Numbered from the stretch's first letter, positions 29,801 through 57,419 are shown. The stretch is 64,000 nt of DNA from an uncultured Acidobacteriota bacterium (GCA_963796275.1 CAWCKY010000004.1:160001-224000); one strand, 5' to 3'. The notes: generated by a model not told the origin, from the sequence alone. Program-made: numbers and translations.

Positions 29801-31381
29801 TATCCCCAGCAGCGCGACGATCATCTCCAATGAACGCGGCAGGGCGAGGGCAACCACGTCCTCCGGTCCAATCCCTTCAGCCATCAGCACGTGTGCCAGG
29901 CGATTCGCTCGTTCATTCAACTCTCTGAAGCTCAGCTCTTGCTCCCCAAAGACCACTGCCACCGCCTGTGGGCTCTTCTTCACCTGCTGCTCGAACAGCT
30001 CTACCAACGTCGCCTGCGCTATCTCCCTCTCCGTCCGGTTCCACTCCAGTATCTGCTCTCGCTCCTGCTCGCTCAGCAACTCCACTCGCCATATCTGTCG
30101 TTCCTGATCGTCTACAAGCCTATCCAGATAACTTAAAAATCTTCGTTCATGAGTAACAAGTGCGTCGCTCGAGTAGCGGTTCGATTCTGCATGAAAATCG
30201 ATTCTCAACTCTCCCGCATCAGAATATCGTTCATAGACATTGATCGAGAAATCTTCGGCTGGTCCATTTGTAAGAATGTGTGCCGTGGCGTGATTGCCGG
30301 CAAACCGCAGTTCAGGAAGGAATGGTATGGCATTGACCACTGGGCCATATAGCCTCTGATTCACAGCGCGTAAACCAAGATCCCGTCGTATATGCTCACC
30401 TCGATAGCGATGGTGCCGCAGCGCCAGACGGGTTCTCTGCCCGACCTGTTGTATTAGCTCCGAGAATGCCATGCCTGGCAGCACCTTCAGTAGCAATGGC
30501 ACCACGTTTGCCAGCATGCTCGGGATTGACCGTGAGACAATTCCTGAGCGGGCAGAGACCGCGAGACCGAGGACTATTTCATCCGCGCCCGTCAATCGGC
30601 TCAGATATGCTGCCACCCCCGCCGTTATGATCTGTGACAAACTCGCCCCGGTGCGGCGCATACTCTCCCGCAGCCGCTCCGCGACAACGCGCTGTACCTG
30701 TGTCGTGTGGAGCAATGAGCCGCGTGAAACGATTGATCGCTGATCCGCAAGGCTTACCGGCTCAGGCAAGCCGGCTAGACATTCCAACCAATACTGCCGA
30801 TCTTTCACGAACCGCTCTGACGCGCAATACCTCTCTTCCTCCTCCAAAAGAAGCCGCAGAGAACCGAAAGCGCTGCCCTTATCCGGCAGGCCGCTGACTA
30901 GTGAAGTGTAGACATCCGCTACCCGTCGTTCGACGAGCAAACACCCGACCCCGTCATTGATAATGTGATGAAATCGAAAGTACCAAAGAAACTTCTCAGG
31001 GCCCGCCTTGAACAGGACAAAGGTAAAAAGCGGGCCGTTGGTCAAATCAACTGCGTGGCCTATATCCGCTTTCATCCAATCTTTGGCCGCTTCCAGTGGG
31101 TCCGCTTCCGCACTGATATCAAAAAATGGCAGCGACCATTGCAAGGACCCATTCAGCATTTGCCGCGGACCATCAGAATTCTCCAAGATACGCACACGAA
31201 GCGCCTCGGCTTCCATAAGAACCTGTCGCAACGCAGCCTCGAAGAGACCTAGATCAACCGGTCCATCGATTTCTATGTATTTGGCGATGTTGTAGATGCT
31301 ACTGTCGGTATCGACCTTTTGTGCTAACCAGATTTCGCGCTGAGCAGCCAGGAGAGGGAGATATAAATACTGATTTACCAT
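5172..31381 (-). CDS. NRPS-1, 8-module lipopeptide synthetase, Cstarter-A-T / C-A-T / E-C-A-T / 4x C-A-T / C-A-T-TE; one gene interrupted by multiple frameshifts
   Basis: Consecutive minus-strand ORF fragments join mid-domain. Eight A domains (YTSGSTG.PKG, YGPTE, YRTGD), eight GGHSL carrier domains, eight C-type domains and a terminal GWSLG thioesterase. Confidence 0.88.
5653..13791 (-). CDS. NRPS-1 fragment: A6(Ser)-T-C-A7(His-type)-T-C-A8(Pro-type)-T-TE start
   Basis: 2712 aa ORF; pocket residues read by eye as DVWHFSLVDK, DSALIAEVWK, DVQFAAHVAK. Confidence 0.9.
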   Translation of the reverse strand: MAERLPETPRRLLLDQPDLADLARALEQSSQINPTDRERVRALRPDNTAYVIYTSGSTGRPKGAAIEHKAIVNRLEWMREHYGIGAGDRILQKTPASFDVSVWEFFLAPIAGATLVVAPPDSHKDPAWLASIIREQGITTIHFVPSMLEQFLAEPAARGIRLCRVFCSGEELPGQLRDRFHAVMEAELHNLYGPTEAAVDVSYWRARPDDESVPVPIGAAVWNTQLYVLNEQLQPMPVGVGGELYLGGVQLARGYLKRAGLTGERFVADPYGEAGRRMYRTGDLARWRRDGNLEFLGRADEQVKIRGFRVELGEIEAAQRELPEVAQAAVVVRADRAGEKRLVGYVVPTAGGSIDVRAVRQWIAQRLPEYMVPSAIVEMEALPLTPNGKLDRKGLPEPELISSDVYRAPRSPKEEILCSLFGEMLGQHRVGIDDNFFELGGHSLLATRLVSRVRAALGVEVAIRMLFESPTVALLAPRLRNFDKAPPLVRQQRPERLPLSYAQHRLWFLDRLGEASTEYNMPCALRLCGKLDCQALEKTINTIISRHESLRTHFAEIDGEPLQVIEPELQIKLLLEDLSGPDEEKQQAHVMAALREEASFPFDLACGPLLRMRLLKLGEGDHLLLRTMHHIVSDGWSEGVFNRELSLLYEAYCEGRENPLKPLSVQYADFALWQRQWLEQEVLAGGLGYWKEQLAGIPERLELPTDRVRPPVQSFAAELCQVSFSREQTSALKQLSQSQQATLYMVLLTGFGVLLERYSGQEEVLVGSPIANRQEAQLEEMIGFFVNTLVMKVGVDAEKSVGELVSEVRRVALEAYEHQDVPFERLVEELSPERSLNTTPIFQVVFALQNAPWMPERMKGLELEPVPGDEMRVKYDLEVHAWEQEGEIVLSWLYNRELFDRWRMEQMGRHYVRVLEAMSADAQRKIGSLELLGEEERRQILEEWNRTAREIPETTVVELFEQQVQRTPEAMAAVFGEQELTYGELNERANGLAHVLIGEGIGPEDVVALALPRSLEMIVALLGILKAGAAYLPIDPDYPAERVAFMLEDAEPCCVITTCETAQRLPERVRRLMLDQVEMVEALEQSPISNPQEWERVRPLRLNNPAYVIYTSGSTGNPKGVLIGHYSLANSTRARFHYYRDPVSRFLLASPFIFDSSVAGIYWTLCQGGTLLLPYERLERDPAQLARLMAESSISHLLCLPTLYSMLLEETKPGQINSLKCVIVAGEACPSELPERHSDLFADAELFNEYGPTEGTVWSSVYGDCSKLSRIAVPIGKPITNAQMYVLDQGLQPVPVGVAGELFIAGAGLARGYLKRPALTAERFVADPYGAPGTRIYRTGDLARWRADGNLEFMGRSDQQVKIRGFRVEPGEIEAALRELPEVAQAAVVAREHKHDEKLLVGYLVPAPGHNINPSVVRQRLAQHLPDYLVPAAIVELEALPLTPNGKVDRKALPQPQLISSDVYRAPRSPHEEILCSLFAEVLGVERVGIDDNFFQLGGHSLLATRLVSRVRAMLGVELAIRTLFESPSVAQLGRRLSESTIGRAALVRQQRPERLPLSYAQQRLWFLDRLAGGSIEYNMPVALRLRGELDRQALEKTINTIVTRHESLRTHFAEIEGEPVQVIEPELRIELRVEDLTALDEEERQVRVLAGLREEASQSFDLARGPLLRMKLFKLGERDHILLRTMHHIVSDGWSEGVFNRELAELYQAFCEGRENPLKPLTVQYADFTLWQRNKLEGGALDEGLKYWRQQLDGMAERLELPTDRVRPPVQSFDAELAQTILSVDLVERLKRLSQSQQATLYMTLLAGFGVLLERYSGQQDVVVGTPIANRQEAQLEEMIGFFVNTLVMRVKVDEEKRIEELVAEVRRVALEAYEHQDMPFERLVEELSPERSLNTTPIFQVIFALQNAPRIPEQMKGLELEPVSGDEMRVKYDLEVHAWEREGEIGFYWLYNRELFDGWRMEQMGRHYVRVVEAMAGDAQGRIGSIELLGEEERIQILEEWNRTAREIRETTVVELFELQVQRTPEAVAVVFGEQELNYRELNERANQLAHLLIGEGIGPEDVVGLAVPRSLEMIVALLGILKAGAAYLPIDLDYPAQRIAFMLADAEPAYMLTTGEAALNTPDISRCLILDHPEIIVRLAQSVDGNPGDGDRRSPLRPENPIYVIYTSGSTGVPKGVMMSAGGLTNLLSWQRGLISGGSGTKVAQFTALSFDVSAQEILSALTSGKTLIIPSNETRHTPAELVRWIEQYKVNELFAPTLVIEVLCETASQLGSDLKSLVEVAQAGEALTLSEQMREFYRHGNRRLYNHYGPTETHVATAYSLPPDTSQWPVSAAIGAPIWNIRVYVLDGGLRPVPMGVTGELYIAGVGLARGYLKRPALTGERFVADLYGGPGRRMYRTGDLARWRADGKLEFVGRSDEQVKIRGFRVEPGEIEEALREIPEVAQAAVVAREDSAGERRLVGYVVPAAGGSIDAGAVRQRIAQRLPNYMVPAAIVELDALPLTPNGKLDRRALPEPEMIPTALWWAPRNPKEEILCALFAEALKLERVGINDNFFELGGHSLLAARLMGRVRTTLGVELPIHSLFTAPTVAELALKLSHPTDRNAFEVMLPLRSKGNLPPLFCIHPGGGLSWCYTRLMHYIGADCPIYGLQSRHFSDPEFIPQTVEEMAADYIDQYPQDPTCRTLLFNRLVIGRTYRACDCDSPSATRG
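13807..20154 (-). CDS. NRPS-1 fragment: A4(Gln)-T-C-A5(Ile)-T-C-start of A6
   Basis: 2115 aa ORF; pocket residues DAWQFGLIDK and DAFFLGVTFK; two HHIVSDG C domains. Confidence 0.9.
13865..19200. repeat. Near-identical tandem intragenic duplication (offset 3159 nt) of the T-C-A(N-term) block
   Basis: Antisense shadow ORFs recur almost identically at 15085/18244, 14585/17744 and 14808/17967. A third partial copy lies near 8725-9400. Confidence 0.85.
20081..22819 (-). CDS. NRPS-1 fragments: end of A3, T3, C4 and start of A4 (several frameshifts)
   Basis: ORFs 21485-22819, 21331-21522, 21111-21299, 20869-21060, 20540-20872, 20352-20645 and 20081-20533 together spell a continuous A-T-C-A sequence. 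Confidence 0.8.
22648..25552 (-). CDS. NRPS-1 fragments: T2, dual epimerization/condensation domain and A3 (Ile-type)
   Basis: [29 protein letters not shown] carries the N-terminal HH..xxxGD signature of dual E/C domains, with HHLTMDH as second motif. A3 pocket reads DAFFLGVTFK. Confidence 0.82.
25380..27563 (-). CDS. NRPS-1 fragments: C2 second half and A2 (specificity unassigned)
   Basis: ORFs 26061-27563, 25859-26122, 25764-26021, 25380-25643; motifs [25 protein letters not shown]. Confidence 0.8.
27530..31381 (-). CDS. NRPS-1 fragment: starter C - A1(Ser) - T - C2 first half
   Basis: N-terminal [11 protein letters not shown]...HHIINDG is typical of lipoinitiating starter C domains; A pocket DVWHFSLVDK. 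Confidence 0.9.
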   Translation of the reverse strand: MVNQYLYLPLLAAQREIWLAQKVDTDSSIYNIAKYIEIDGPVDLGLFEAALRQVLMEAEALRVRILENSDGPRQMLNGSLQWSLPFFDISAEADPLEAAKDWMKADIGHAVDLTNGPLFTFVLFKAGPEKFLWYFRFHHIINDGVGCLLVERRVADVYTSLVSGLPDKGSAFGSLRLLLEEEERYCASERFVKDRQYWLECLAGLPEPVSLADQRSIVSRGSLLHTTQVQRVVAERLRESMRRTGASLSQIITAGVAAYLSRLTGADEIVLGLAVSARSGIVSRSIPSMLANVVPLLLKVLPGMAFSELIQQVGQRTRLALRHHRYRGEHIRRDLGLRAVNQRLYGPVVNAIPFLPELRFAGNHATAHILTNGPAEDFSINVYERYSDAGELRIDFHAESNRYSSDALVTHERRFLSYLDRLVDDQERQIWRVELLSEQEREQILEWNRTEREIAQATLVELFEQQVKKSPQAVAVVFGEQELSFRELNERANRLAHVLMAEGIGPEDVVALALPRSLEMIVALLGILKAGAAYLPIDLDYPAERVAFMLEDAEPACLISNSRMAERLPATPRRLLLDQPDLADLARALEQNSQINPTDRERVRALRPDNPAYVIYTSGSTGRPKGAAIEHKAIVNRLEWMREHYGIGAGDRILQKTPASFDVSVWEFFLAPIAGATLVVAPPDSHKDPAWLASIIREQGITTIHFVPSMLEQFLAEPAARGIRLCRVFCSGEELPGQLRDRFHAVMEAELHNLYGPTEAAVDVSYWRARPDDESVPVPIGTAVWNTQLYVLNEQLQLLPPGVEGELYLGGVQLGRGYVKRAGLTGERFVADPYGEAGRRMYRTGDLARWRRDGNLEFLGRADEQVKIRGFRVELGEIEAALRELPEVAQAAVVVRADRAGDKRLVGYVVPAPGRSIDAGTLRQQLAQRLPDYMVPAVIVEMEALPLTPNGKLDRKGLPEPELISTAVWRGPRSPKEEILCSLFAEVLGRERVGINDNFFELGGHSLMATRLVSRVRAMLGVELAIRMLFESPTVALLAPRLRNSDKVPPLVRQQRPDQLPLSYAQQRLWFLDRLGGGSSEYNMPIALRLRGELDREALEKSINTIVTRHESLRTHFAEIEGEPVQVIEPELLIEIPIEDLSKLSELERASRVMAELREEGSLPFDLACGPLLRMRLLKLGEGDHILIRTMHHIAFDGWSEGVFNRELALLYEAYCEKENPLRPLAVQYADFALWQREWLEREVLAGGWPTGKSSWRGYPERLELPTDRVRPRCRAMRQNCIR

Positions 31382-37664: not shown

Positions 37665-40488
37665 TCAGAGCGTGATCCCTTCATCGCTTCGGCCCAGGAT
37701 GCGCGCGACGACCTTGGCAAGCTGCACCGGTTCGACCGGTTTCGACAGGTGTTGCTGAAAGCCGGCTGAAAGGGCGCTTTCCTTGTCCGATACACCAGCG
37801 AATGCGGTCAATGCGATAGCCGGCACCTCACCTCCCTCTTCCTCCGGAAGCGCCCGGACCTTTTTGATCAGCGCATACCCATCCTCGACCGGCATCCCGA
37901 TATCGGAGACGAGTACGTCCGGCTTCCATTGGGAGAGGACATCCATCGCTTCGGCAGCGGAGGCGGCAGCGCGCACCTCGGTACCGTACCGAGAGAGCAT
38001 GACGCTGAGGATACTCGCGAGTGTCGTGATCATCATCGACAACCAGCACCTTGGCTCCTCGTAGAGATGAGGTCCGCGTATCTGGCTGTTTTTCCGGACG
38101 AATGGGCCATAAACCGCCGGCTTCCACATCGCCCTGCTGCGCCCCCAGCGGCAAGGTGATCATAAAGTCTGATCCCTGCCCGATCCCGCGGCTGTACGCG
38201 TATATTGCGCCACCGTGCAGCTCAACCAGATGCTTGATAATAGCCAGCCCGAGACCTAAGCCCCCCTGCTGGCGGCGCGACGAGCTATCGCCCTGACGGA
38301 ACCGATCGAATATGCGCGGGAGAAACTCGGGATCGATTCCCTGCCCCGTATCGCTGACAATAAGCAGGGCTTTGTTCTCCAACCGCTCGAGACGGACTTC
38401 GATCAATCCGCCAGGCGGCGTGAATTTGATCGCGTTAGAGAGCAGGTTCCAAACGATCTGTTTCAATCGTTCGACATCGCCATTGAAAGGACCGACCCAC
38501 GGCTCGAGAACGATCTGCATCCGCAATTCTTTGCCCTCGACCATGGGGCGCACCGCGTCGACGGCTGCTTCGACGATGGACATCAACTCGACCGGACGAA
38601 TCTCCAGGTTGAGTTTCCCCGTAGCAATGCGCGATGCGTCGAGCAGATCGCCGACCAGATGGGCCTGCGTCTTCGCGTTGCGCTCGATGGTCAACAACGC
38701 CCTATCGAACGAAGCGCGATCGAGCGTGCCGGATCGCAGCATCTGCGCCCAGCCCAGGATGGCGGTGAGCGGCGCCCTCAACTCGTGCGAGATCATCGCC
38801 AAAAAGTCATCCTTCAGGCGGTTCGCATCTTCCGCAACCTGCCGAGCCTCCTGCTCGCGGCTGAGCAGATCTGCGCGCTCCTCCTCGATGCGTACCCGCT
38901 CGACTTCCGACTTCTTGCGCTCCGTGATATCGCGCACGATGCCCGTAAAGGTTTGCCTGCCGTCTTTGACAAACTCGCTGAAACTGACTTCGACCGGGAC
39001 GTCCCGGCCATCCTTATGCCATCCCATCAATTCTATTCCCGCATATCCCCAGAAATTGCTCCGGTGTTGGCAGTGCATAAGCGTCGTCAATTTCTGTCCG
39101 ATGATCTCCGATGGTATATAGCCGAATATCTTCTCAACCGCCGAATTGACGTATTGGATCGTGATCTCTTCGTCCACCGTGAGGATGACATCAGATGCGG
39201 TCTCGGCCACGATGCGATAGCGCTCTTCGCTCTCGTGCAGGGCGGCGGCCATCCGTTCGCGTTCCGTGATGTCACGTATCTGGCTCATGACGATCGTCCC
39301 GTCCTCCGTAACAATCTGGCGCCGCGTGATCTCCGCCAGGAATTCGCGACCGTTACGGCGGATGACCGAGAATCCGACCTGATCGCTCACCCCCGCATCT
39401 CTTCCTATGGGAACCTCATCATCCAGCTCGAAATCATCCAGCTCGAGCAGCATATCCTCATCGGGGTCATCAGACTCTAGAGCCAGTCCAAGGCGACCCG
39501 ACTGTATTGTTTGTGCAGATTGGCCCGTTTGCCCATTCTGCCCCGTAGGTCCCGTTTGGCCCGTCTGCCCCGTCTGGCCGGTCTGCCCCGTCTGCCCCGT
39601 CTGCCCCGTCTGTCCTATTTGTCCAGATTGCCTCGTTTGCCCTGTTTGTCCGATTTGTCCAGATTGTCCCGTATGCCCCGTTTGGGCTATATTTCCAGAC
39701 TTTCCCAACTGTCCGGTTTTCCCCAGTTGACCCGTCTGCCCGATTTGCCCCGTATGCCCCGTTTGTGCATTTGAGGAATCGGGCAAAAGCATAGAGACTG
39801 GTTGGCCGAGCAGTTCCTGGCGATCCACTCCGAAGAGCTTCTCGGTTTGCGAATTGACGAGCACGATCTGACCGTCCTGATTCGCCAGCACAATTGCATC
39901 GGGAGCGAATTCGAGCAACTCCTGGAATCGCGTTCGCGCGGCAACCAGGCTATTGATGAGGCTGCGGTTCTCACGCATATCGCGCGCGACGGCGAGCACG
40001 CCCGTGATCTTGTTCTGTTTGTCCTGCATCAGACTCAGCGAAAAACTGACCGGGATCGTCAGGCCACTCATCGTTCGGATATCGACTTCGAGATTGGGCA
40101 ACCTTCCCGTGGGAGCCAACTCCATCAACTTCCACGGTGTGGCTGGAATTTTCTCGGTGCCACAAACCGCCCTCAACGGGCGTCCGATGATGGAGGACTC
40201 CGGATATTCGAGCAGGTTGGCCGCCGCGGGATTGACCCGGATGACGCGGCCCGACCGGTCCGTCAGAAAGAGCGCCTCCGACATAGACGAGACCACGTGT
40301 TGAAAGAGATCACGCGTTTCGGCGATCTCCGCAGTACGCCGCTCTAGCTCGAATTGCGCATTGGTCAGCTCGGTGTAAGCGCTCTGTAGATTTGCGAACA
40401 TATCAAGCCGGGCAGCCTCGTTCAATTTGCGCGTATTCTCCTGTCGATCGTCATCATCTTCTCTGAATTTCCAGCCCAGTAATTTCAT
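37665..40488 (-). CDS. Cytoplasmic hybrid sensor histidine kinase (coiled coil - 3 PAS - HisKA - HATPase - REC); frameshift near 38010
   Basis: H-box [10 protein letters not shown]-box [11 protein letters not shown]1 DTGQGI, G2 GLGLGL. REC domain VLVVDDD...VSDIGMP...KP is split over two frames. GGAGG RBS; no transmembrane segment seen. Confidence 0.9.
39497..39768 (-). repeat. Degenerate 9-bp tandem repeat encoding about 30 Gly-X-Y (mostly GQT) triplets
   Basis: GTCTGCCCC-type units on the + strand; protein [12 protein letters not shown]...[18 protein letters not shown]. Confidence 0.9.
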
Positions 40489-40849
40489 TATTCCTCCAGG
40501 TAGGTTCCTCTATCCGTTCGCGCGATTCTGAGTTTTGCTATATCAGTGAAGCACCTCAGCTCTATATTTGGTACTCCGGATCAGGTTGAATCATGTATAC
40601 CGGTTGGTTTCCAGCGGGGCGAATAATGCTCTATGATTCAAGTTTCAACAAGATTCCAGGGGGGCGAAACTAATGCATCGCTCTCGCTTCTAACGAATCT
40701 CAAAATAATTCTAAAATTAGTACTATAAATATTCCGCCTCGCCGAGGCTGTCAATGAAAATCAGGATGACCGGCATCCTCTCTCCATTTTTCCAGTGCCA
40801 AACCAGCGTCAAATTAGTTAGCGCCGGCTCTCAATGACAATTGGAACTG

Positions 40850-42682
40850 TTATGGATCAAAACTGCGAATTGTTCGCAATATATCGATCCCCGTAAAATC
40901 GTCGGGCTTACTGAACGCTTCGAGCAGCGGCGTATTGATGATCGCCTGTTCATATGGGCCCGGCTTGCCGAATGGGTCCTGCGGCGATCCCATCCACTCG
41001 GAAGGAGCGACGATCCGGTAATTTGCGATGCGGCCGCGTCCAATCACTACATGGTGAATCAAGGCGCCCTGCGCGTCTTCCCAAAAACCCACGCCGACAG
41101 CCTCCTCCCGCACTCTATAGGGTTTTGACATCGCCACGTCTCGGCGCTTAAGGCAATCGAAAGCCTTCAAGAGGTATGTCAACGCGATAATGCCGCAGTA
41201 GCCGATATGATAGGCGCGCGCGCGAATGCGATCGAGCGCGTTCGGTCTTTCCGGTATCTGCCAGCGCAACCTTCTGGCCGGTAGTTGAAAACGTGGGAGA
41301 TCGATCTCCAGTCCCATGCCAGCAGCACCGCCGCTGACCGCCTGGATAAACTCGCTCTTCAATTGACCGCCCGCCGCCGTGATCCACTGCCTCGCGAGCG
41401 GACCGGATTCAACCGCCTCACGATCCCAACGTGGCGCCATGTTCCAGCTATACCGGTCCATCCAGTGACTGCGCCCGGGCGCTGGAACCGTATGATTATT
41501 CCATGGATGCAGAGGCGAAAGCGGGATACCCAGCGGATCGACGATCACCGCACCATCATCCCCCTTTTGATAAAAAGAACGGTTGGTAAATTCTTCAATC
41601 CCCGCGTTTATCTCCGATAAACGAACGGTCCTTAATTTACCATTAATTATCACTCCTGGCGTCACAAGCCTACGCACACCCCAGTTATTGGAGTTTTCAA
41701 ACTTCGCATTGTAGCGGGAAGGATCATCCCACATACCCGCCGAGATCAGATTCGCGGGCAAGTAACCGGCGTGATGATAGCGCGCATCGATCTTATAGAA
41801 GAAATTGGCCAGGTCATCCCATATAGCCGCGGTCTTCTTGGCGTAGTCAATCAAGTGATTCAGGCGGCCCAGGACTTGATTGAATATTTCTTTGTCGGGA
41901 AGGATGCCGACTCCGCCGGGAAAGATCGCGGATGGGTGCGGATACTTACCGAAGACGAGCGTAGCGATCTCGCAAGCGATGCGAATCATACCCAATGCTT
42001 CGCGGTAAAGCGCGCCGCTCATCGGGTTCATCTCCCGCATAATGTCGGCGATCGTTTGGTAGCCGTGTAATGCGGAAAATTCGGCCTTCGACTCCTGAGC
42101 TTTAGCCCAGATCGTCATGCTCGTGCGGCTGATCGTCGCCTCCGAATAATCAGGTCCGGATTGCACAAAGAGATGGCGAGTGAGCGATGCCATCAACTCG
42201 GCCGCCGCTCCCAATCCGCGCGTGATAATCGCGAGAGGTGGCGGGGCAATATCCAGCGCCATCTCCAATGCCATGGCCGAGGCAATAGCGTTTGCCCCGG
42301 CGCCCCACCCGCAAATACGGCTGGCGATCGGCACGGCATCAGCCGGCAACCGGCCTTTGAGGATCTGCTCGAGATCCCAAAAATTGGTTTTCTCAACTCG
42401 CGCATCGAGTACCCGGCGGTTTTTGAAGTCTATGATGGCTCGTAGCGATAAGGGATTCTTCGCGCGCGCCAGCGGGTCGACTTCGAAATAACGAGCATCG
42501 GGATTGTTCGCCGCCTCCTCTAACCGCCGTTCGTGGTCCGAGTTCGCTTCAGTCTTAACCGTCCGACCAATTGCCTGCGGTCCGGCAGCCCCTGTCACCG
42601 CAAAGGGATCGGCGGGTCCTCGCAAACGCAACTTCCCCTGACCGCGGGAGTCGAGATCGATTGGCAGATTTTTGAAGACCAT
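40850..42682 (-). CDS. [NiFe]-hydrogenase large-subunit homolog B, metal-binding motifs degenerate
   Basis: Start MVFKNLPIDL matches the paralog. DPLAR, SRICGWG (second L1 Cys lost), GKYPHP, HPWN, R(I)RAR, PGPYE; ends [11 protein letters not shown] with no L2 CxxC. Confidence 0.88.
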   Translation of the reverse strand: MVFKNLPIDLDSRGQGKLRLRGPADPFAVTGAAGPQAIGRTVKTEANSDHERRLEEAANNPDARYFEVDPLARAKNPLSLRAIIDFKNRRVLDARVEKTNFWDLEQILKGRLPADAVPIASRICGWGAGANAIASAMALEMALDIAPPPLAIITRGLGAAAELMASLTRHLFVQSGPDYSEATISRTSMTIWAKAQESKAEFSALHGYQTIADIMREMNPMSGALYREALGMIRIACEIATLVFGKYPHPSAIFPGGVGILPDKEIFNQVLGRLNHLIDYAKKTAAIWDDLANFFYKIDARYHHAGYLPANLISAGMWDDPSRYNAKFENSNNWGVRRLVTPGVIINGKLRTVRLSEINAGIEEFTNRSFYQKGDDGAVIVDPLGIPLSPLHPWNNHTVPAPGRSHWMDRYSWNMAPRWDREAVESGPLARQWITAAGGQLKSEFIQAVSGGAAGMGLEIDLPRFQLPARRLRWQIPERPNALDRIRARAYHIGYCGIIALTYLLKAFDCLKRRDVAMSKPYRVREEAVGVGFWEDAQGALIHHVVIGRGRIANYRIVAPSEWMGSPQDPFGKPGPYEQAIINTPLLEAFSKPDDFTGIDILRTIRSFDP

Positions 42683-42834
42683 AGATTGGTGATTGCTGAT
42701 TATTGATTGCAGGGGGATTCTCCACAAAAACCGCATAAATACAAAAGACACAAAAGAGATCTTTTCTTTCTTGTGCCCTTTGTCTTTTCGTATTTTTTTG
42801 GGTGAATCTCTCTCCGCGATCCGCCATCAAGATG

Positions 42835-44625
42835 TTACGGATCGAAGCTGCGAATCGTTCGTAAAAGATCAATGCCTGTGAAATCTTCCGATCGCGTACA
42901 TTCTTCGAAGAGTGGCGTGTTGATCACCGCCGCCTCGTAGATGCCGGGCAATCCCGATGAATCGCGTGGTGATCCCATCCACCCGGTTGGAGTGGTGATC
43001 TGGTAGTTTGAAATGCAAAGATTCCGGTTGACGATGTGATGGGTGATGGCGCCGCTGCTGCTCTCCCAAAATCCGGCGCCGATCGTTTTTTGCGGGATGA
43101 ACTGACCGGCCGACATCCCGGTCTGTCCAGTCCGCACCAGATCGAAGGCTTTGAGCAGGCTGGCATATGCGGTCAGGCCGGCATATGCCATTTGATATGC
43201 GCGGGCGCGGTTGCGCTCGAGTGTGTTCGGCTTTGCCGGTATCTGCCAGCGTAATGTGATGGCCGGCCGCGTGCCCATCGGCATATCAAACTCCAAACCA
43301 TAGCGGTCCTGCCTGATAAATTCACAATCAAGACTTCTGCTCAATGCGTTTACCCAAAGAAGCGCGATCGGCCCCGTCTCCATCGACTGGCGATCCCACC
43401 TCGTCGAGGTGCTCCAGCTGTAGCGATTCTTCAATTGACGTTCAGCCGGATCGGGAATCGTCTCCTTGTTCCACGGATGCAGGTGAGACAGCGGCATGCT
43501 CAAGGGATCAGTCGGAAACGAACAATGATTCCATTGCCGATAGAATGAGTGATCGATAAATTCTTCGATCCCTATGTTGATATCGCTCAGCCTCGCCGTG
43601 CGCCATTCCCGGTTAGTGATGATACCCGGGCTCGCCATTCGGCGCCTCGCCCATTCATTACAGTTCGCGTAACTCGCGTCGTAACTTGCGGGATCGTCCC
43701 AACACCCCACGCTCAGAAAATTTCCCGGCAATTCGCCGGCGAGGCGATAGAGCGGGTCTGCTTCATAAAAGAACTCTACCAGGTCGTCCCAGATCGCCGT
43801 AACTTTCTTCGAGTAATCGAGCAGCGTGCTGACGCGACCGAGAATCTGATTAAAAAGATCCTTGTCCGCTTCGATCCCCAATCCGCCAGGATAAATCGTG
43901 GTCGGATGCGGATACTTGCCGAAAATCATGGTGGCGATTTCGCATCCCAACCTCGACATCTGGAGAGCCTCGAGATAAAGCGGGCCGTACATCGTGTTCA
44001 TCTCGCGCATGATATCGGCGATGGACATCAGACCGTGAATCTCGACGCCAGGAGCCCTCGTCACTTGCGCTTTGGCCCATATCGAGAGGCTGGTGCGACT
44101 GACTGCGGCCTCGGAATAGTCCGGCCCGGTGAGCAGGAATAGATGGCGGGCGCATTCGCTCAGCATCTCGCCACACGATCCCAGATTCCGCGCGATGATC
44201 GCCAGCGGGGGCGGCGTGAGATTCCCGGTCATCTCCAATGCCATCGTTGCGGCGATCGCGTGGGCGCCGCTCGCTCGCCCACTGGTGCGGCAGGCGATCT
44301 GAGTTGCATCGAAAGGATTCCTCTCCTTCAACATCAGTTCAAAGCCGCAGAATTGCGTGTTTTCGACGTAGGCATCGAGCACTCGCCGTTGCTCGAAATC
44401 GATTATAGAATTCAAGACCAACCCGCCCGATGCGCGCGTCAACGGATCGATCGTGAAATTCCATACGTCCGGACTTTCGGCACCGCTTTCCATCGTTTGC
44501 TCTATCCCCGGCGCGCGATCCACACGGGGTTCTTCAACGATGTCGAAAGACGCTACCGGTCTATTGTCGTTCAAACGCGCTCGCCCGTAGGCATCATATT
44601 TGATTGGCAAACTCTTGAATACCAC
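42835..44625 (-). CDS. [NiFe]-hydrogenase large-subunit homolog A, metal-binding motifs absent
   Basis: GTG start. DPLTR, L1 region reads CRTSGRA instead of SRxCGxC, GKYPHP, HPWN, ERNRAR; ends [11 protein letters not shown]. Confidence 0.88.
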
Positions 44626-44716: not shown

Positions 44717-45562
44717 TCAACCCGGGTCCGGACGGGCGAGATGAAGGAGGCGATCGGCGAAACCACGCTCGGTACAACCGATGCAACTCCCACCCACGCG
44801 GACACAACCGCCGAAATTCCTCAACCACCCATTGACCGGCACCGAGCAATTGACCGTCGGGCGGTTCGTCAGATCAATTCCGCCAGCCGGAGAATATTCG
44901 ACACGCGGTGGCAATGGATGTGTTTGGTGACTGAAAAGCCAGCGAGGACGGCGTTCCTCATCCAAATCGATGGGTACCAGTTGAGCTAAATGCAGAAAAA
45001 CGTAAATCAAGGTCTCAATAAAACCTTCACCTGTCGGAGCACAACCTGGAAGATTGATGACGGGCAATTTGGCCTGGCTTCTGAAATCCTGGCCTAGATA
45101 TTCATCGAGGCCGTTGGCAGCGATCGGGCTGCCGGCCGAAGCCGGAATACCTCCCCAGGTCGCACAGCTACCAATCGCTATAACCGCCTCGGCCCTGCGC
45201 GCCAGCCGGTCAACCCACGCGGCGGTCGTGATCGGCTTGCCATTCTGTGTCATTCCCAAACGTGAAAAGCTTCCATCTCCGGCGCGCGACTCGTCCGGGA
45301 TTGCACCTTCAAGCACCAGAACAAAGGGAGAGTAGGCGCCCTCGGCAGCGCGTTCGAGATGGGCGCGATACGAATCGCCGCTCTCCAGTGAAAATTCGGG
45401 GTGAATCATTACTACGCGAGGCACGTCGGGCACATTGCCCATAATTAAATCTTCTATCCCGGGTTCAGAGGCGCAGAGCATCGCCATCGTGCATCCGTTG
45501 CAACCAGCCCCGGTTAACCAGATCAGATGTACAGCCTCGAGCGATGTCCCTTCGCTCTGCAT
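44717..45562 (-). CDS. [NiFe]-hydrogenase small-subunit homolog (proximal and medial cluster cysteines present, distal ligands absent, no Tat peptide)
   Basis: [28 protein letters not shown], then NC...GGC...GGSCIGC. GAGGAG RBS. Confidence 0.88.
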
Positions 45563-47610: not shown

Positions 47611-48507
47611 TCACACCATTACATTTAATGCGGAGGGAAGCACTTCCAAACTTTCGCACTGGACCTTCATCACTTCGCCATCAATCATAATATCGACCGG
47701 TTCCTGAAAATCCAGATCGATGCGCTGAGCCCTTCCCACCCAAACGAGCGGATGTGAAATGTGGGTACCGTCGTAGCATTTCGGAAAATTCCGGATGAAA
47801 TCGAATCGATCGGCCGACCAGCGAACGATATCGATCAACCCATCGCGCGTATCGGCATTCGGCGCGAGCATCATTCGACCTCCGGTATACTTGCTGTTAT
47901 TGAATATCAGAAGCGCGGACAGCGGTGGATCGGCTTCAGCCACTCCATCGATTTTCATTCTGAAGATGCGCTTCTTGAAGTTCGCTAAGCAGAGGAGTAC
48001 CGACAACGGGTAACTGGCCGCGCCCAGCGATTTAAACCGATCATTGGCGAGTGTGCAAACATCGGCTACGAAACCGAGGCTCAAGATGTTGATATAAAAA
48101 ATCTCACCATCTTTATGTTTCAGGCGGACCACATCGCAACCGCGCCAGCGCTTTTCCATGATAGCCCGAAACGCATATTCGACTCCTTTATCAGTGAAGT
48201 CGCGCAGGAATGAGTTGCCCGTGCCGAGCGGCAAGAATCCCAGCCACGGTTTAACGCCATCGTTCGCGGCTTCGGGAAACAGGCCGTTGACGATTTCAAA
48301 TGAAGTGCCATCCCCGCCGACTGCGATGAATTTAAGATATCCGTCGCGGTAGGCCGCGCGCGCTATCAGGGTCGCATGCCCCGCGCGCTCGGTTTCAACA
48401 ACGTCAAACTGCAGCCCTGCTGCGCGCAGGCGATCGAGTGAGGGACCGAGAAGCTTGGCGCATTTTCCGAAACCCGCCGCCGGATTGACGATGGCAAGAG
48501 TCTTCAT
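47611..48507 (-). CDS. Diacylglycerol/lipid kinase family protein (YegS/DAGK-like)
   Basis: [28 protein letters not shown] motifs. Confidence 0.9.
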
Positions 48508-50228
48508 AGCTCTATGACCGCCGTGTGGCGCTCATATCTGTTTCGTAATTCCTCGGCCAGTACAAATCGTTTGATCTTCATCGAAGCGGTGCGCGGGAAA
48601 TCGGTATCACACAGGATGTAGCCGCTTATACGTTTGAAGTTGAGCAGCGTGTTATTACACCTGGAGATTTCCTGGATGACATCATCCGTCAATGCCTGCC
48701 CTTCATTGAGCCTCAGAGCGATCACCAGTTTTTCTCCGAGCATCGTGCGTTCAGGCCACACGTAGTTGGCCGCGAAGATGCAGAACTCCTTGACCGGCAG
48801 CCCATCAAAAGCCTTTTCGATGTCTTCCGGGTAAACGTTCTTCCCTTCTTCGGTGACGATCATATTCTTGACCCGCCCGAAGAGCTGAAGATGCCCCTCC
48901 TCGTCAAATCGTCCGAGGTCCCCGGTCAATAGCCAGCCATCGACGATTGTCTCAGCTGTCAGCTCCGGTTCATCCAGATAATGCGACATCACGGTATCGC
49001 TCCGGACGATGACCTGACCGATCCCGTCATCGTCCGGGTTGACCACCCGGACATCCATCCCGGGAAGCGGTTTGCCGACGGTATCGGCGCGGAACGGTCT
49101 GAAGTCATTGAGGGTGATGGCCGTCCCCGCTTCAGTCAAGCCGTAGCCATTTCCCACCGGAATCCCTACATCATAGAAGAACTGAAGCATCGAAGGATCG
49201 CTGAATGCCCCGCCCGTGAAGACGGCGCGCAGCTTCCCGCCGAACGCCTGGTGTATCTGTCTGAACATACCACGGCTCAGCCTGGGACGCGGCTGATTCT
49301 TCGTCAGAGCGCGATTGATCCTGACCAGTCGATTGAAGAAAAAACGGTTGAAAGGCGACAATTCATCGAGGCGTTTCATCAATGCGATCTGCAGGTTCTT
49401 CAAAATCAGCGGCACCAGGGCGACATACGTGATCTTGTACCGCACAAAGGCCTCGCGCACGAATTCCGGTCGCAATGTGCGCAGATGAATGACAGTCGCG
49501 CCGCAAACGAACGGCCCGATGAATCCAACCATAAAATCTATCGCGTGGTTCGTCGGCAAAATGCTGAGGTATCTCACGCCCGGCCAGAAAGGGAAAAGCG
49601 ATGTAAGCGAGGCGCACTGCTCGAGATAGTTATGGTGCGTCAACACGCACCCTTTTGGAGTTCCGCCGGTGCCCGAAGAGTAAACTATGCACGCCCAATC
49701 TTCACGCTTGCGCTTTACGAATAAAGGCTTCCCCTCGACATCGGGGTCTTCCCAGCGGATCGCGCCATATAGATCCGCATTATCCGGTGCATCGGTCACG
49801 ATCACTGTGCCGACGCTGAATTCCGAAAATCCCTCGCAGCGAGCCATCGCGCGCCACAGGTGATATTCGGTGATCAGCACTTCAGCCTTGGAGTGAGTGA
49901 GCAGAGCCAGATGTTCGGGAGCCGAAAGCTTATAATCGAGTGGGACAACCACGCCTCCTGAGTAAAAGATGGCGTATGCCGAAATCGGCCAGCGCGACTG
50001 GTTGGACAGAATGATCGCCGCACGCGAATCGGCCTCGAACCCGCGGTCCTGGAGAAACCTCGCCAGTGGCATAGCGGCTTCTTTGAATGTACGGTAGGTC
50101 AACCGGTGATTTTCCTTATCGCGATCGGCTTCGATAAGGCAGACTTCTTTGGAGAATCGGTCGATTGCTTCGCGCAGAGCGGATCCTATCGATTGGTGCT
50201 GGCTCAGATTGATCATCCCATTTTTCAT
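48504..50228 (-). CDS. Long-chain acyl-CoA/acyl-ACP synthetase (AMP-binding)
   Basis: [38 protein letters not shown]. Confidence 0.9.
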
Positions 50229-50277
50229 GTGTTCGCTGTAGCACGCCTTTTTTCGATTTATCCATCCGCAAGCAGCA

Positions 50278-50520
50278 TCACAGTCGCGCTTGAATTCGTT
50301 CAGCCAGTGTGCGGAAATCGCTTACACCCTGCACTTCGTAATCAGGCAATTCGACATTGAAATGGTTCTCCAGACGAGTCAGCAGTTCGAGCGCCTGCAA
50401 ACTGTCAATACCCAGTTTTTTGAAATAGTCGTCGTCCGGTGAAAGCTCTTCGCGCGATGCCTTAAAATGCGTCGCGGCAAGCGTGAGTATTTCGTCAACG
50501 ATGTTTTCTGTAGTTTTCAT
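50278..50520 (-). CDS. Acyl carrier protein
   Basis: 80 aa from MKTTEN; LGIDSL phosphopantetheine site; LENHFNVEL. Confidence 0.88.
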
Positions 50521-50531
50521 AAACCCAAGAA

Positions 50532-50604
50532 TAGTTGATAGTTCGTAAACATTGTGGCAACAATCTATACGAACTATCAACTATCAACTGTCAACTATCA
50601 ACTA
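50532..50604. repeat. Heptamer tandem/inverted repeat
   Basis: TAGTTGATAGTTCGTA ... TACGAACTATCAACTATCAACTGTCAACTATCAACTA. Confidence 0.75.
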
Positions 50605-50606
50605 AT

Positions 50607-51602
50607 TTAGTATGCCCACCGCACCAGTACCGTTCCGGCCGTGAATCCAGCTCCGACAGCGGCGAACAAGACCAGGTCCCCTCTCTTCAATTTACCATCG
50701 TCGATCGCGTCGCCTATGGCCAGCGGAATCGTCCCGGCCGTCGTATTTCCGTACTTGTGAATATTCCGGATAACCTTCTCCTGGGCCAATCCGAGTTTTT
50801 CGGCAGTAGCATCGATGATTCGGATATTCGCCTGGTGTGCGATGAAGGCTCCCAAATCATCGCCGGTCAGGTGATGTTTTTCGAGCATTCTATGACTTAA
50901 CTCTTCCATCTTCCGCACCGCGAATTTGAAGACCGAAGAGCCGTTCTGGTGAACGAAGTGCATATTCTTTTCGACGGTCTCCCGGGTGGACGGATGCAGA
51001 CTTCCGCCGGCGGGCATGCAGAGATTGTCGCCGCCGGAACCATCGATTTCGTGATAATAATCGAGTATCCCAAATTCTTCGTTTTCAGCCGGCTCGAGCA
51101 ACACGGCGCCGGCGCCATCGCCGAAGAGGATGATGGTTGATCGGTCACTCGGATTGACGATGCTCGTCATGACGTCGGTGCCGACGACAAGAACATTTTT
51201 GTGTTGCCCGCTCTCAATGAATTGCGCTCCGGTGGTCAGGGCGTAGAGGAAGGACGAGCAGGCGGCGGAGATGTCAAAACCCCACGCGCGCGTTGCGCGG
51301 ATTTTGTTCTGGATTACGCAGGCCGTCGAGGGGAAGAACATGTCGGGAGTGACCGTCGCAACGATAATCAACTCGATCTCTCCGGCCTCGATGCCGCGAC
51401 GCTTTAGGAGATCGTCGATGGCTTTGACGGCGAGTTCGGAGGCAGGCGTCCCTTTTTCGACCCATCGCCGTTCGTGGATACCGGTACGTTCAACAATCCA
51501 TTCGTGACTGGTCTCAACCAACTTTGCCAGATCGTGATTGGTTACGACGCGCGGCGGCACGTAACGCCCCAACGCTGTGATCTTGGCTCTTCGTTTAGTC
51601 AT
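50607..51602 (-). CDS. fabH: 3-oxoacyl-ACP synthase III
   Basis: RTGIHERR, catalytic [16 protein letters not shown] and YGNT motifs. Confidence 0.92.
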
Positions 51603-51690
51603 TCGTTATTCTCCGGAGATACGGGAAAATGCAAAAATGCTAATAGCTGAATATTCCTGGCATTACCTGCTTTTCAATTCCCGCTACATT

Positions 51691-52494
51691 TCAGGGCAAA
51701 TAAGGAAATGGATCGCTGCTCTCCACAAATCTACGCAAGCCGGCTTCGACCGCTGGTCGAGTAAATAGCTCGCAGAAAATTTCGATCTCTTGTCGAAGTT
51801 CGGCGGAGGGGACCGGCTTGATGAACCCTTTCGCTCTGATACTCGTCGCTCGATCAAACTTCCTTACCTGTGCGGCCGCCGCGCGCGCTACTTTGAGCGC
51901 ATCGCCTTCAGCAACCAGCTGGCTGACCAGCCCGATAGTTTGCGCCTTATTAGCATTTATACTCCTACCGGTCAGCAACAAGTCACGAACAATAGCATTA
52001 CCCAGATCACGCTTCAAACGCGGAATGCCGCCGAATCCAGGGATCAGACCCAACCGAAGTTCGGGAAAACAGAACCGGGCCATCTTGTCCGCAATGATCA
52101 GGTCGCAAACGAGCGCGAGTTCGAATCCGCCTCCGAATGCCATGCCGTGGACAGCTGCGATCGTCACGAGCGGCGAAGCGTCGAGCGTGTTCATCACGCC
52201 ATGAATACGGTTGAGAAACTCGCGAACGCGCGGCGCGGCGTTTTCAAATCCCAATTCTTTGGCGCGGAGATAGAGTTCGCGCAGATCGGCCCCGGCGCAG
52301 AAACCCGATTTCATGCGGCTGTAAATGATGAGCGCGTGTGCTTCATCCTTTAATATTTCGTGCGCCTCAACGAATCGTTCGAGCTCTTCGAGGGTCTTCG
52401 AGCCGATTTCATTGCAGGGCTCACGATGCAGGGCCAGTTCGATACAACCATCGCGCATTTCCCACGAAATCGTCTCACCGGTGAAGCTTTTCAT
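51691..52494 (-). CDS. Enoyl-CoA hydratase/isomerase family protein
   Basis: [29 protein letters not shown]; both catalytic glutamates present. Confidence 0.9.
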
Positions 52495-54149
52495 ACTTTT
52501 TTGGAATGATACAGATCCTCGATCTGAGACTGAAATTGTGCGGCAATGGCATCGCGCCGCAGCTTGCCATTCGCCGTCAGCAATCCGCTCTCGATCGTCA
52601 AAGGCTCTTTGTTGAGATGAAATGCGTGTATACGCTTGTAATGCGGCAACTGCAGATTGACCGTCTCCAGAGCCTGTTCAACCTGCTCGTGCGACACCTC
52701 CCCAGTGATCAATGCAGTCAGGAAACCGCGGCCATTACCCATTACCACGCATTGCTGCGCGTCCGGCAGTTTAAAAAGAACCTTCTCCTCGATAGGCTCG
52801 GGCGCAATGTTATGGCCGGAATTCAGGATGATCAGGTTCTTGATTCTACCGACGATCGCCCATTTGCCTTGCTCATCGACTTCGCCTTGATCTCCGGTGC
52901 GCAGCCAACCGTCGTTCATCGTTTTCGCCGTAGCCTCAGGCTTCCCCCAGTAACCGGCGAAGATATTAGGCCCTCGTACCAGTATCTCATCGCCTTCGCC
53001 GAGTTCCATCTCTACCCCGGGAACCGCCGGTCCCACACGACCGGGTACGAAATCGCGCGGGTCATCCAACGTGCAGATAGCCGTGGTTTCGGTCAAGCCA
53101 TAAACCTGTAAGACGCGAATCCCGAGCATGAGGAAGAAAAGTTGCGTATCTTTCGCCAGAGGCGCAGAGCCGCAGATCAGCGCCCGCAGGCTCGACCCGA
53201 TCTTTTTTTTGATGGAAGAAAAGATCAGCGAATTTGCCAATGAGAACCAAAACCCGTCAAAACCCGACGCTTTTCCCTCGTACTTTCGCAGCCAGGCCGC
53301 TTTGCCATTGTGATAAACCTTGCGGATGATACCCGGCTTCCGCGCTATCTGGCTCTCAACACCCGTGCGAATACGCTCGAGCAATACCGGGACGTTGAGG
53401 AAATATTGCGGTTGGGCTAGTGTCAGCTCCTCTCCGAGTTTATTGAGATCGGTCGATAGAGTCAGCAGACTGTGGCGCGACAAACACCCAAGAAGCAGGA
53501 TCCACGAGCCGGCGAAGCAGAAGGGCAGATAATGAAAAACGTGATCCGGATAACTCTCGCTTTCGCCTTCCATCAACTGATCGAGCCGCATCCCCACACA
53601 GCTCAGCATAAATGTGACGTTGCCGGCATTTAGCATAACTCCCTTCGGCTCGCCCGAAGTACCGGATGTATAGATGAGAGTGACGACTTCCCCATCATCG
53701 AGCGTCAGCGGTCCATCAGCCAGCTCATCTGCCGGCTTGGCCGAAAAGATTTCCTCGAAGAGCTTCAACCTCAGCGTTCCAGCATGTTGGTTCTTCGCTA
53801 TCCCATCGAGGAGCTCTTCACTGCTGCAGCAAACCATCGCCGCGCCGCAATCTTTGAGCATACGGGCGAGCTCATCCGGCGCCTGTCTCGGATAGAGGGG
53901 GACCACGATGATGCCTTCGGCGATGAGCGCCAGATCCAGCGCCGCCCATCGAATACTGTTAGGCGCGAGCAATCCGCAGCGGTCGCCTTTCTGTAAGCCC
54001 GATTGGCGAATGAAGCTGCGCGCCGTCCGGATCGATGTAAGCAGTTCGCCCGCAGTCGCGCCAACGAACTGGCCGTCACGAACCTCACGCAAGATAGGAA
54101 GGTCGGGTCTTTGTTTCAGTCGATGAAAGATGTTTTCGATAAAGTTCAT
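52491..54149 (-). CDS. Long-chain fatty acid-CoA ligase (FadD-like)
   Basis: [42 protein letters not shown]. Confidence 0.9.
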
Positions 54150-54162
54150 TCGGTGAAGCCCC

Positions 54163-54280
54163 TTGTCATTGTTAATTGTTCATTGTTGATTTTCATTTGT
54201 CATTTGTCATTTAAGAATTAAGCTACCGTTTTTTTCTTCAATGACAAATGTCAAATCAACAATGAGCAATGAAAAATGAC
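54163..54280. repeat. Heptamer tandem/inverted repeat
   Basis: TTGTCAT/TGTTAAT/TGTTCAT units followed by complementary AATGACA/AATGTCA/AATGAGC units. Confidence 0.75.
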
Positions 54281-54291
54281 GGGTGGGCCAG

Positions 54292-55704: not shown

Positions 55705-55767
55705 GCGGTATCTCCTAGGTAAGACAATAAAATAAACGGTATTGCGAGGGGTTAGCGAGTTCTTTCA

Positions 55768-56940: not shown

Positions 56941-57008
56941 AACCGGGTCAAGTTATCTAGTTGAGGCCTGTGCAAATTATAGCCAGTTGCCATCAGTGTT
57001 TTCTGATT

Positions 57009-57155
57009 GGCTCCGGAGGAGCCCGATATTTATAGCTCAGGGTCTAATTTCAATCTCCAGCTCCGAAGGAGCGGCATCCGAATGCGGGGATGTCGATTCA
57101 TCGCAGCCGGCGAAATGTGGATGATCGAATGCTATAACATTTCGCGCCTCCGGCA
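57009..57155. repeat. Degenerate REP-like palindrome cluster
   Basis: GGCTCCGGAGGAGCC and GCTCCGAAGGAGC short hairpins, then GCGCCTCCGGCAC. Confidence 0.45.
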
Positions 57156-57269
57156 CCTGCCTGCTTAGCCACTAATTACTCGGGCAATTTATTTTTTGAT
57201 ATCGCTCTGGCCCGCTTCACGGGTTAGAACAATATTCAAACAACCTTGTTTCCACAGTACTAACACTAT

Positions 57270-57419
57270 TAACTAAGTTTCTTAATGATCGACGAATCAG
57301 TACCGCGAGCGGTAGCGAGCGTTGTACCCGAGCCAGTCGATTGATTGAGCCACGCTCGCTACCGCTCGCGGTACTGATTCGAACTTGAATCGCCATTTAA
57401 ACATCAAATAACTTAGTTA
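57270..57419. repeat. REPIN/MITE-like element: perfect 30-bp inverted repeat nested in a 10-bp outer inverted repeat
   Basis: CGAATCAGTACCGCGAGCGGTAGCGAGCGT (57293-57322) and its exact complement (57352-57381); outer TAACTAAGTT / AACTTAGTTA. Confidence 0.75.

Follow-up and report, generated by a model that had tools for sequence, protein, structure and literature searches.

The subject of this analysis is a small gene cluster in a stretch of 64,000 nucleotides (nt), here called the window, from an uncultured Acidobacteriota bacterium (GCA_963796275.1, CAWCKY010000004.1:160001-224000). On the minus strand of the window four genes lie in a row, in the order small subunit (S), large-subunit paralog A, large-subunit paralog B and PAS histidine kinase (Table 1). 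S, A and B are of the [NiFe]-hydrogenase type. The genes for A and B stop at the codon at which relatives have the first cysteine of the L2 motif, DPCxxCxxH, and the Ni-Fe site is lost from both proteins.

Table 1. Features of the cluster, with positions counted from the first nucleotide of the window
Feature	Position	Strand	Description and basis
Small subunit S	44717..45562	minus	281-amino-acid (aa) open reading frame (ORF); Oxidored_q6 3e-21; HofK match 5.6e-67
Large-subunit paralog A	42835..44625	minus	596 aa; 0/4 Ni-Fe Cys; Arg replaced by Ser; ends RSFDP
TAA stop of A	42835..42837	minus	codon of the first L2 cysteine in relatives
Large-subunit paralog B	40850..42679	minus	609 aa; 1/4 Ni-Fe Cys; Arg replaced by Gln; L1 His replaced by Asn; ends RSFDP
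TAA stop of B	40850..40852	minus	codon position identical to that of A's stop
PAS x3 - HisKA - HATPase_c histidine kinase	37828..40488	minus	886-aa frame; Pfam; directly 3′ of B
Receiver domain of the hybrid kinase, in another frame	37665..38129	minus	ORF, Pfam and comparison with the kinase of locus L053

Paralog A closes with CGC AGC TTC GAT CCG TAA and paralog B with CGC AGT TTT GAT CCA TAA. Each protein ends at the DP of the L2 motif, and the in-frame continuations (HLDGGS after A, QFQLSL* after B) restore no CxxC..H 3′ of either stop. The other pair of ligand cysteines, in the L1 motif RxCGxCxxxH, is not intact either. RICGICG of the solved relatives corresponds to RTSGRAS in A, which has none of the four ligand cysteines (L1 reads RTSGRA), and B, where L1 is RICGWG within RICGWGAGAN, has one. 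The active-site Arg, in GFHEAVRG of 5aa5_C and AAPRGALGHW of 3rgw_L, is matched by Ser in A (ESSSG) and by Gln in B (EDAQG). The matches to Pfam family PF00374 (2.2e-49 for A, 4.3e-56 for B) both end at profile position 501 of 508. The cysteine counts, the Arg replacement and this early end of the profile match bear out the claim of an initial sequence-only reading that the site has gone from both paralogs. Its placing of the stops is confirmed too, its observation that the two genes are diverged yet free of frameshifts holds as well (50% identity, 304/609), and no statement that it made on the sequence proved wrong. The ORF of B spans 40850..42751, with the family-like start, MVFKNLP, at the ATG at 42679. 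Among solved chains A scores best against 5aa5_C of group 1h (2.1e-109), followed by 3rgw_L (1.7e-31) and a group 2a Huc chain (3.6e-19). Without L1 and L2 (and the Arg) no Ni-Fe(CO)(CN)2 can be held, and established knowledge of the family excludes turnover of H2. Since A and B cannot bind Ni-Fe, H2 is not sensed by turnover.

The truncation is not peculiar to the window. Homologues were the best 120 of the 1406 90% clusters that scored at E <=1e-20, drawn from 8000 candidates. Among these best 120 clusters, 83 have F(D/A/G)P as their last residues and 1 has RSF; 2 run exactly to the L2 His, and the remaining 34, which are Cys-complete, carry a C-terminal extension. Truncated large-subunit genes number 70, in 44 loci (43 public contigs and the window). 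Orthologues in related genomes without the truncation would have spoken against the sequence-only reading; they share it. Of 401 genomes sampled from the phylum, 26 have a match to A, and truncated forms occur there only in this genome (G000) and in two other genomes of its family (G016 and G251); 22 of the other matched genomes were read as Cys-complete, and G259 is without a readable tail. The truncated loci are labelled Blastocatellia or Acidobacteriota, apart from some named 'Heliomicrobium' or 'Heliobacteriaceae', which is taken as a naming quirk of a set of metagenome-assembled genomes (MAGs). In P0122, a more distant truncated member that is 45% identical to A, the last residues are RSFDV, and both the Arg and the first Cys of L1 are present; its sequence suggests that there may be further lineages of truncated large subunits.

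Given an L2 cysteine codon turned stop, artefact and recoding have to be considered: the stops could be errors, or could be read as an amino acid (e.g. selenocysteine at DPU) with CxxH downstream. In [NiFeSe] enzymes the equivalent position is indeed a UGA-encoded selenocysteine, and half of the family's stops are TGA (35, against 29 TAA and 6 TAG). However, both stops in the window are TAA and all three stop codons are used across the family. From one locus to the next the sequence 3′ of the stops shows no relation; it often contains more stops and in no case CxxC..H, and in near relatives, as compared in Logan contigs, indels begin within a few bases 3′ of each stop. At read level the picture is partial. 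Logan contigs from two other studies (X2 and X3, in pieces ~92-95% identical) cross both stops, with no difference listed at 40850-40852 for B, but the listed substitutions end short of the TAA of A at 42835-42837; the X1 contigs, 100% identical, lie over neither stop. All the gaps of X2 are intergenic (40775-40848, 42705-42828 and 44680). Sequencing or assembly error, or pseudogene status, was rejected for A and B on the frames kept in X2 and X3, the low ratios of nonsynonymous to synonymous substitution (dN/dS) and the family-wide truncation. Stop recoding, including by selenocysteine, was rejected on the window's TAA codons, the use of all three stops and the absence of CxxC..H beyond them. 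Together the chance that artefact or recoding accounts for the stops is negligible.

Loss of the site has not been followed by relaxed selection. Across 8 pairs of relatives, Nei-Gojobori dN/dS lies at 0.037-0.125 in S and at 0.042-0.124 in A; for B or its Cys-complete counterpart B′, which is dealt with below, the range is 0.062-0.131. The further claim of the sequence-only reading, that the fold is under selection, is supported by the values of about 0.04-0.12 for A and 0.06-0.13 for B, which mean strong purifying selection. When 37 A rows, 27 B rows and 22 canonical rows are compared column by column, 129 columns are at least 95% conserved in the 22 Cys-complete relatives, and 63 of these reach 90% or more among the A rows and among the B rows alike. 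Those lost include the columns of the four cysteines and of the Gly after the second Cys. The second L1 Cys is absent from all 37 A and all 27 B orthologues. The Arg is more unevenly distributed, being kept in 23/37 A-type and 0/27 B-type orthologues (22 of the 27 have Gln), and because so many A-type proteins keep it, its loss from the A of the window is a detail of the lineage and not a family trait. The L1 His is kept in 35/37 A; in 22/27 B it is Asn. A cluster of homologues at 86% identity has a length and motifs equal to those of the window's proteins.

An AlphaFold model of A, made from a 41-row alignment, has a mean predicted local distance difference test score (pLDDT) of 88 and a predicted template modelling score (pTM) of 0.88. 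It superposes on 5aa5_C with template modelling (TM) scores of 0.90/0.95 and a root-mean-square deviation of 1.2 Å over 554 columns, and so the fold, which had been proposed to be kept, is predicted to be so. Residues 1-41 of the model are below pLDDT 50. Near the N-terminus these proteins carry the peptide MCFKNLPIEFD, position 2 of which is Cys in Cys-complete relatives, Val in A and B and Tyr in 3/4 B′. It was considered as a kinase-docking motif and rejected, as kinase-free 1l-like enzymes carry the same peptide.

S lies directly upstream of A. Its best solved relative is HofK (5aa5_A), and besides Oxidored_q6 it matches the Pfam family NiFe_hyd_SSU_C at 26.5 bits, below the 27-bit cut-off. 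S keeps eight cysteines: the four of the proximal Fe-S cluster and four more, the C-terminal CxxC set. Every family member with a residue at these columns has the Cys: four columns, two of them proximal, are Cys in 38/38 family members, and the other two proximal columns in 36/38, with 2 rows gapped there. Three further canonical cysteines are P or gap in all 38, and the HofK segment H-D-G-C...C...C is absent. Presumably, by the usual ligand order in small subunits, the missing trio comprises the distal-cluster ligands. S has no C-terminal tail; no signal-peptide motif was noticed in it, though no dedicated scan was made. A structure model of S is confident only at residues ~6-210 (mean pLDDT 74.8) and was set aside because the cluster-binding C-terminus is of low confidence.

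The constant neighbour of the truncated large subunits is the kinase. In 37 of the 43 public loci with a truncated large subunit (L), as in the window, a PAS histidine kinase gene adjoins the hydrogenase-type genes; in the public loci its start lies between -66 and +221 nt relative to the end of the L genes. In the other 6, the sequence is masked there or runs on for <=388 nt only. In locus L053, the one whose kinase was domain-scanned, the kinase is one continuous protein of 991 aa with PAS x3-4, HisKA, HATPase_c and receiver domains, and the window kinase is 82% identical to it over the first 237 aa. The N-terminal helix and first PAS domain of the kinase are highly conserved, across phyla. 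The commonest layout is S-A-B-kinase. S-A-kinase is found in L039, L060, L061 and L066 (L065 has A-kinase on a contig that begins inside the cluster), and S-A-B′-kinase in L041, L047 and L058; on the short contig L072 the kinase comes after a B′ that stands alone. A 3296-aa B-kinase fusion in L057 was dismissed as an artefact of masked N. A predicted complex of S with kinase residues 1-185 gave scores of 0.30, 0.33 and 0.00 against a mark of 0.32 and counts neither way. Between the PAS domains of the window kinase, a 9-bp tandem repeat of ~18 copies (39510-39699) encodes a collagen-like (GQT)n stretch with a Pfam Collagen match; the stretch is absent from the alignment of the L053 orthologue.

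Cys-complete relatives place the truncated proteins in a wider setting. One of them, B′ (L041:11766-13622, L047:11892-13700, L058:12092-13903 and L072:321-2132), has RVCGLCG at L1 and GVRG or SGQG at the Arg site, and ends DPCLHCAVH-stop, exactly at the L2 His and without an extension. In L041, L047 and L058 B′ stands in B's position after a truncated A; the short contig L072 has no A gene. B′ shares states with B: Gln for the Arg in 1/4 (L058), and Asn in 2/4 for the L1 His, which we take to be the same His as that replaced in regulatory hydrogenases. In trees rooted on six 1h sequences the order is a clade designated 'TTH', then a grade designated 'TVH', then B′+A+B (100/100), with 'TTH' the next sister of the whole kinase-linked clade. 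'TTH' is represented by 10 rows in one tree and 6 in two others, including L015 (G024), on which no claim rests. The 'TTH' proteins are Cys-complete, with long small subunits (~400-500 aa) and a spacing of ~1.5-1.9 kb between small- and large-subunit genes (L069, L073, L081, L092, L093, L106). None of 22 complete 'TTH' large-subunit loci has a kinase beside L.

'TVH', the Cys-complete clade closest to the truncated family, is known from eight loci (L069, L073, L074, L081, L086, L087, L088, L090) in MAGs of Rokubacteriota, Chloroflexota, Gemmatimonadota, Nitriliruptorales and Acidimicrobiia. Its large subunit is Cys-complete with an extension, and the paired S is short and two-cluster, like that of the truncated family. 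Directly 3′ of L is a PAS/GAF kinase or PAS protein in 7/8 loci (L073 has only 910 nt left), with the same kinase N-terminal motif as in the family where aligned (L069, L074, L081, L088). In three of the eight (L069, L073, L081) the 'TVH' module adjoins a 'TTH'-type hydrogenase operon; the two are separated in L081 by a GAF kinase and a NarL-type regulator. Genes for a sensor and for the enzyme under its control are arranged in this way, as with HoxBC-HoxJ.

Whether the site was lost before the duplication that gave A and B, as the sequence-only reading had it, is only partly answered. In the careful tree (50 rows, LG+C20+F+G4) B′ falls outside A+B, and the joining of A and B with an ultrafast bootstrap (UFBoot) of 98 and a Shimodaira-Hasegawa-like approximate likelihood ratio test (SH-aLRT) of 94 favours a single truncation before the duplication. 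However, a B+B′ constraint is 11.75 log-likelihood units worse on that tree and is not rejected (approximately unbiased test, p-AU 0.101), and on a quick LG+G4 tree of 90 rows it is 5.74 units better (p 0.606). None of the loci read has both B and B′. As B′ occupies B's position and shares B states, and the B+B′ tree is not rejected, the order of loss and duplication is not settled. A second, parallel truncation at the L2 Cys codon would not be far-fetched, because TGY to TGA is one step. From the sequences, loss before duplication is favoured.

In group 2b (HoxBC-HoxJ of Ralstonia eutropha, HupUV-HupT) the genes for both hydrogenase subunits are likewise accompanied by one for a cytoplasmic PAS histidine kinase, and HydDB lists 2b as 'histidine kinase-linked' (PMC5037454). 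The sensor unit of the regulatory hydrogenase has two heterodimers on a kinase tetramer, and a conserved His is replaced by Gln in regulatory hydrogenases (PMC5665086). The regulatory large subunit lacks a cleavable C-terminal extension (PMC8159394). The missing extension is matched by B′; A and B are cut even shorter. The window system differs from 2b in having two different large subunits per small subunit and a hybrid kinase with a receiver domain. It differs also in that H2 cannot be its signal, since neither A nor B has a Ni-Fe site; in this family only the B′ paralog of some relatives is Cys-complete. Nor do these proteins place within group 2, the nearest solved chains being of group 1h and the trees putting them in a 1h/1l-related clade, in a comparison in which group 2 was represented by the 2a Huc chain.

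Group 1h (HofG/HofK, PDB 5AA5; Hhy), which includes the best solved relatives of both A and S, is cytoplasmic. Unlike A, B and S, the 1h enzymes have RICGICGDNH, DPCLPCGVH plus an extension, the Arg, a three-cluster small subunit and no kinase link. The published layout of group 1l (Hyl), with separated small- and large-subunit genes, is fitted by 'TTH' (10.1101/2020.08.06.239558), and from this fit 'TTH' may be taken as group 1l. The 1l-like 'TTH' proteins have the N-terminal MCFKNLPIEFD motif in common with A and B and differ from A, B and S in being Cys-complete, in their long small subunits and in lacking the kinase.

There is a precedent for a large subunit without its metal site. In complex I and Ehr-type complexes the 49-kDa/NuoD subunit has the [NiFe] fold without the four cysteines and is essential beside PSST/NuoB, a small-subunit homologue in which the proximal cluster is retained. 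These complexes are derived from group 4, sit on antiporter-like membrane subunits and have one cluster only. S-A-B, in contrast, has no membrane partner, two clusters in S (8 conserved Cys) and group 1 ancestry; neither antiporter-like membrane subunits nor a single-cluster small subunit was found.

The reading favoured here, put at an even chance, has S-A-B descend from a hydrogenase-type sensor: blind to H2, it would now serve the kinase as a scaffold or as an Fe-S redox input. S, A and B would together be a hydrogenase-derived input module of the PAS hybrid histidine kinase just downstream. The ancestor would have belonged to a kinase-linked clade of Cys-complete [NiFe]-hydrogenases, sister to the 1l-like uptake hydrogenases and with the gene layout of an H2 sensor. 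In a Blastocatellia-type lineage the large subunit would have been duplicated, and A, and B in most genomes, would have lost all or nearly all Ni-Fe ligands together with the whole DPCxxCxxH tail. By their kept fold A and B may still hold S, and a mixed (S-A)(S-B) double dimer, by analogy with (HoxBC)2, probably positions the kinase. The remaining signal would most likely be the redox state or integrity of the two [4Fe-4S] clusters of S, that is a redox or O2 input; alternatively the module could be a pure scaffold for the kinase.

A wider proposal joins to this a sensor lineage of which the Blastocatellia proteins are a part. It holds that there is an undescribed class of kinase-coupled [NiFe] sensors within group 1, with a two-cluster S, beside 1l-like operons, in Chloroflexota, Actinomycetota, Gemmatimonadota and Rokubacteriota, and that in Blastocatellia an S2AB 'pseudo-hydrogenase' feeds an Fe-S redox or O2 signal to the same kinase. 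This joint proposal is somewhat less likely than not. If it is true, the loci with A and B′ are living intermediates in the evolution of an enzyme into a pseudoenzyme. In a full-text search of the literature, with paper supplements outside it, no description was found of a Cys-less truncated 1h/1l-like large subunit. The same search found no account of a kinase-linked group 1 hydrogenase clade, the supplements outside it possibly including lists of relatives in group 1l papers.

A number of points weigh against S-A-B being an input module. The binding of S-A-B to the kinase, the control of kinase activity, the stoichiometry and the signal sensed are all things that we infer. Known H2 sensors, all of group 2b, are three-cluster proteins whose Ni-Fe site is intact, but A and B lack the site and S is two-cluster. 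Conservation of the Fe-S cysteines is no proof of redox sensing, because they would also be needed for the mere folding of S. The ancestry rests on 'TVH' being an H2 sensor lineage, which its gene order suggests, and, in contrast to known sensors, the 'TVH' large subunit still has its C-terminal extension. The Blastocatellia loci have no hydrogenase or hyp gene in their 10 kb flanks. In the window the kinase starts 361 nt 3′ of B, and a weak terminator-like hairpin (40779..40763) lies between them, from a scan for promoters and terminators that was no richer than shuffled sequence (3 sites found vs 5.2, and 8 vs 8.8).

The window's kinase itself raises a further difficulty. Its receiver domain is out of frame with the kinase core, the break falling at about 38010-38020 at GAG TAT CCT with no homopolymer, and at about residues 23-28 (40405-40422) the W and P that at least 90% of 20 relatives have in LHEAAWPDMF are replaced by R and L. 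These features may mean that the system is in decay in the window, or that there is a fault in the assembly; a sequencing error is conceivable as the assembly has at least one other split gene. That the cluster is a decaying remnant in this genome, of a family functional elsewhere, draws on the same displaced receiver, on the W27R and P28L changes at nearly invariant positions and on the (GQT)n repeat inserted in the kinase, as well as on the long end branches of A (0.39) and B (0.33) and the absence of the Arg from both. It is nevertheless improbable, as A, B and S are all intact, the contigs of ~92-95% identity from two other studies keep the frames with gaps confined to intergenic DNA, and neither length nor motifs differ in the cluster at 86% identity. 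Other frame breaks in the assembly may themselves be errors, for example that in a second 1h large-subunit gene on contig C6 (see below).

Two rivals would give A and B other work to do. In one, the vacated pocket binds a new substrate or cofactor, electrons pass via the proximal cluster of S, and the kinase merely regulates this neofunctionalised redox enzyme. Such a role has a model in complex I, where a hydrogenase-derived 49-kDa/PSST pair works with quinone, and is in line with the retention of the proximal and second clusters in all aligned S proteins, the strong purifying selection on A and B and the survival of half of the canonical invariant columns. There is, however, no new invariant set of Cys, His, Asp or Glu. 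The residues at the former ligand positions are small and variable (at the L1 Cys positions Ser, Gly, Ala or Arg; at the Arg site Ser, Gln or Arg), the loci read share no neighbouring gene for a membrane protein, for quinone handling or for an electron acceptor, and the loss of the distal cluster removes the usual exit for electrons; a new enzyme is thus unlikely. No more credit is given to the second rival, in which A and B act independently of the kinase as partners or regulators of the genome's real hydrogenases: a decoy, an assembly factor for small subunits or Hyp proteins, or a non-catalytic protomer. Truncated A beside Cys-complete B′ in L041, L047 and L058 does recall enzyme/pseudoenzyme pairs, and G000, G016 and G251 each hold Cys-complete hydrogenase genes and HypD elsewhere. 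However, the cluster has its own dedicated S, is never beside hydrogenase or hyp genes in the Blastocatellia loci read, and has the kinase as its constant neighbour (37/43 loci).

The remaining surroundings of the cluster can be described briefly. Its neighbours in the window are the kinase, LigT and acyl/lipid enzymes. The acyl/lipid block (48504-57896) comprises two AMP-binding enzymes, KAS III, enoyl-CoA hydratase, a pyruvyl-transferase-like protein, an NAD-binding reductase and DUF4199; it is a conserved neighbour of the S-A-B cluster in relatives and is inverted in the window. The composition of the window changes sharply at about 30000: over 1-30000 the G+C (guanine plus cytosine) fraction is ~0.59-0.63 (except 4001-6000, 0.505) with a strongly negative GC skew (to -0.42), and over 30000-64000 it is ~0.49-0.58 with a skew near 0. 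An ORF across 28000-31381 begins like a condensation-domain protein of the nonribosomal peptide synthetase (NRPS) type. Elsewhere in G000, contig C6 has two group 1h loci. In one of these, at ~2230455-2232288, the second 1h large-subunit gene is split over two frames, in pieces of 370 and 284 aa, through an indel in the assembly or a genuine break; on its flanks the split locus has three hybrid kinase genes.

[NiFe]-hydrogenases are defined by the four cysteines of the metal site, and surveys usually discard sequences without them. Automatic annotation, on the other hand, calls these homologues 'nickel-dependent hydrogenase large subunit', and because of this soil Acidobacteriota could be wrongly scored for extra H2 oxidation. 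On the best reading, kinase-linked regulatory hydrogenases being already known, what is new here is a kinase-linked hydrogenase-type sensor that has turned pseudoenzyme. The finding also suggests that, next to the group 1l enzymes that use atmospheric H2, there is a kinase-linked lineage of hydrogenases that has gone unrecognised. Apparent intermediate forms are extant, and with them it becomes testable how the sensor addresses the kinase and which part of the signalling needs H2 chemistry. More generally, the fold of the large subunit can stay under strong selection for a non-catalytic job, one tied to a two-component kinase.

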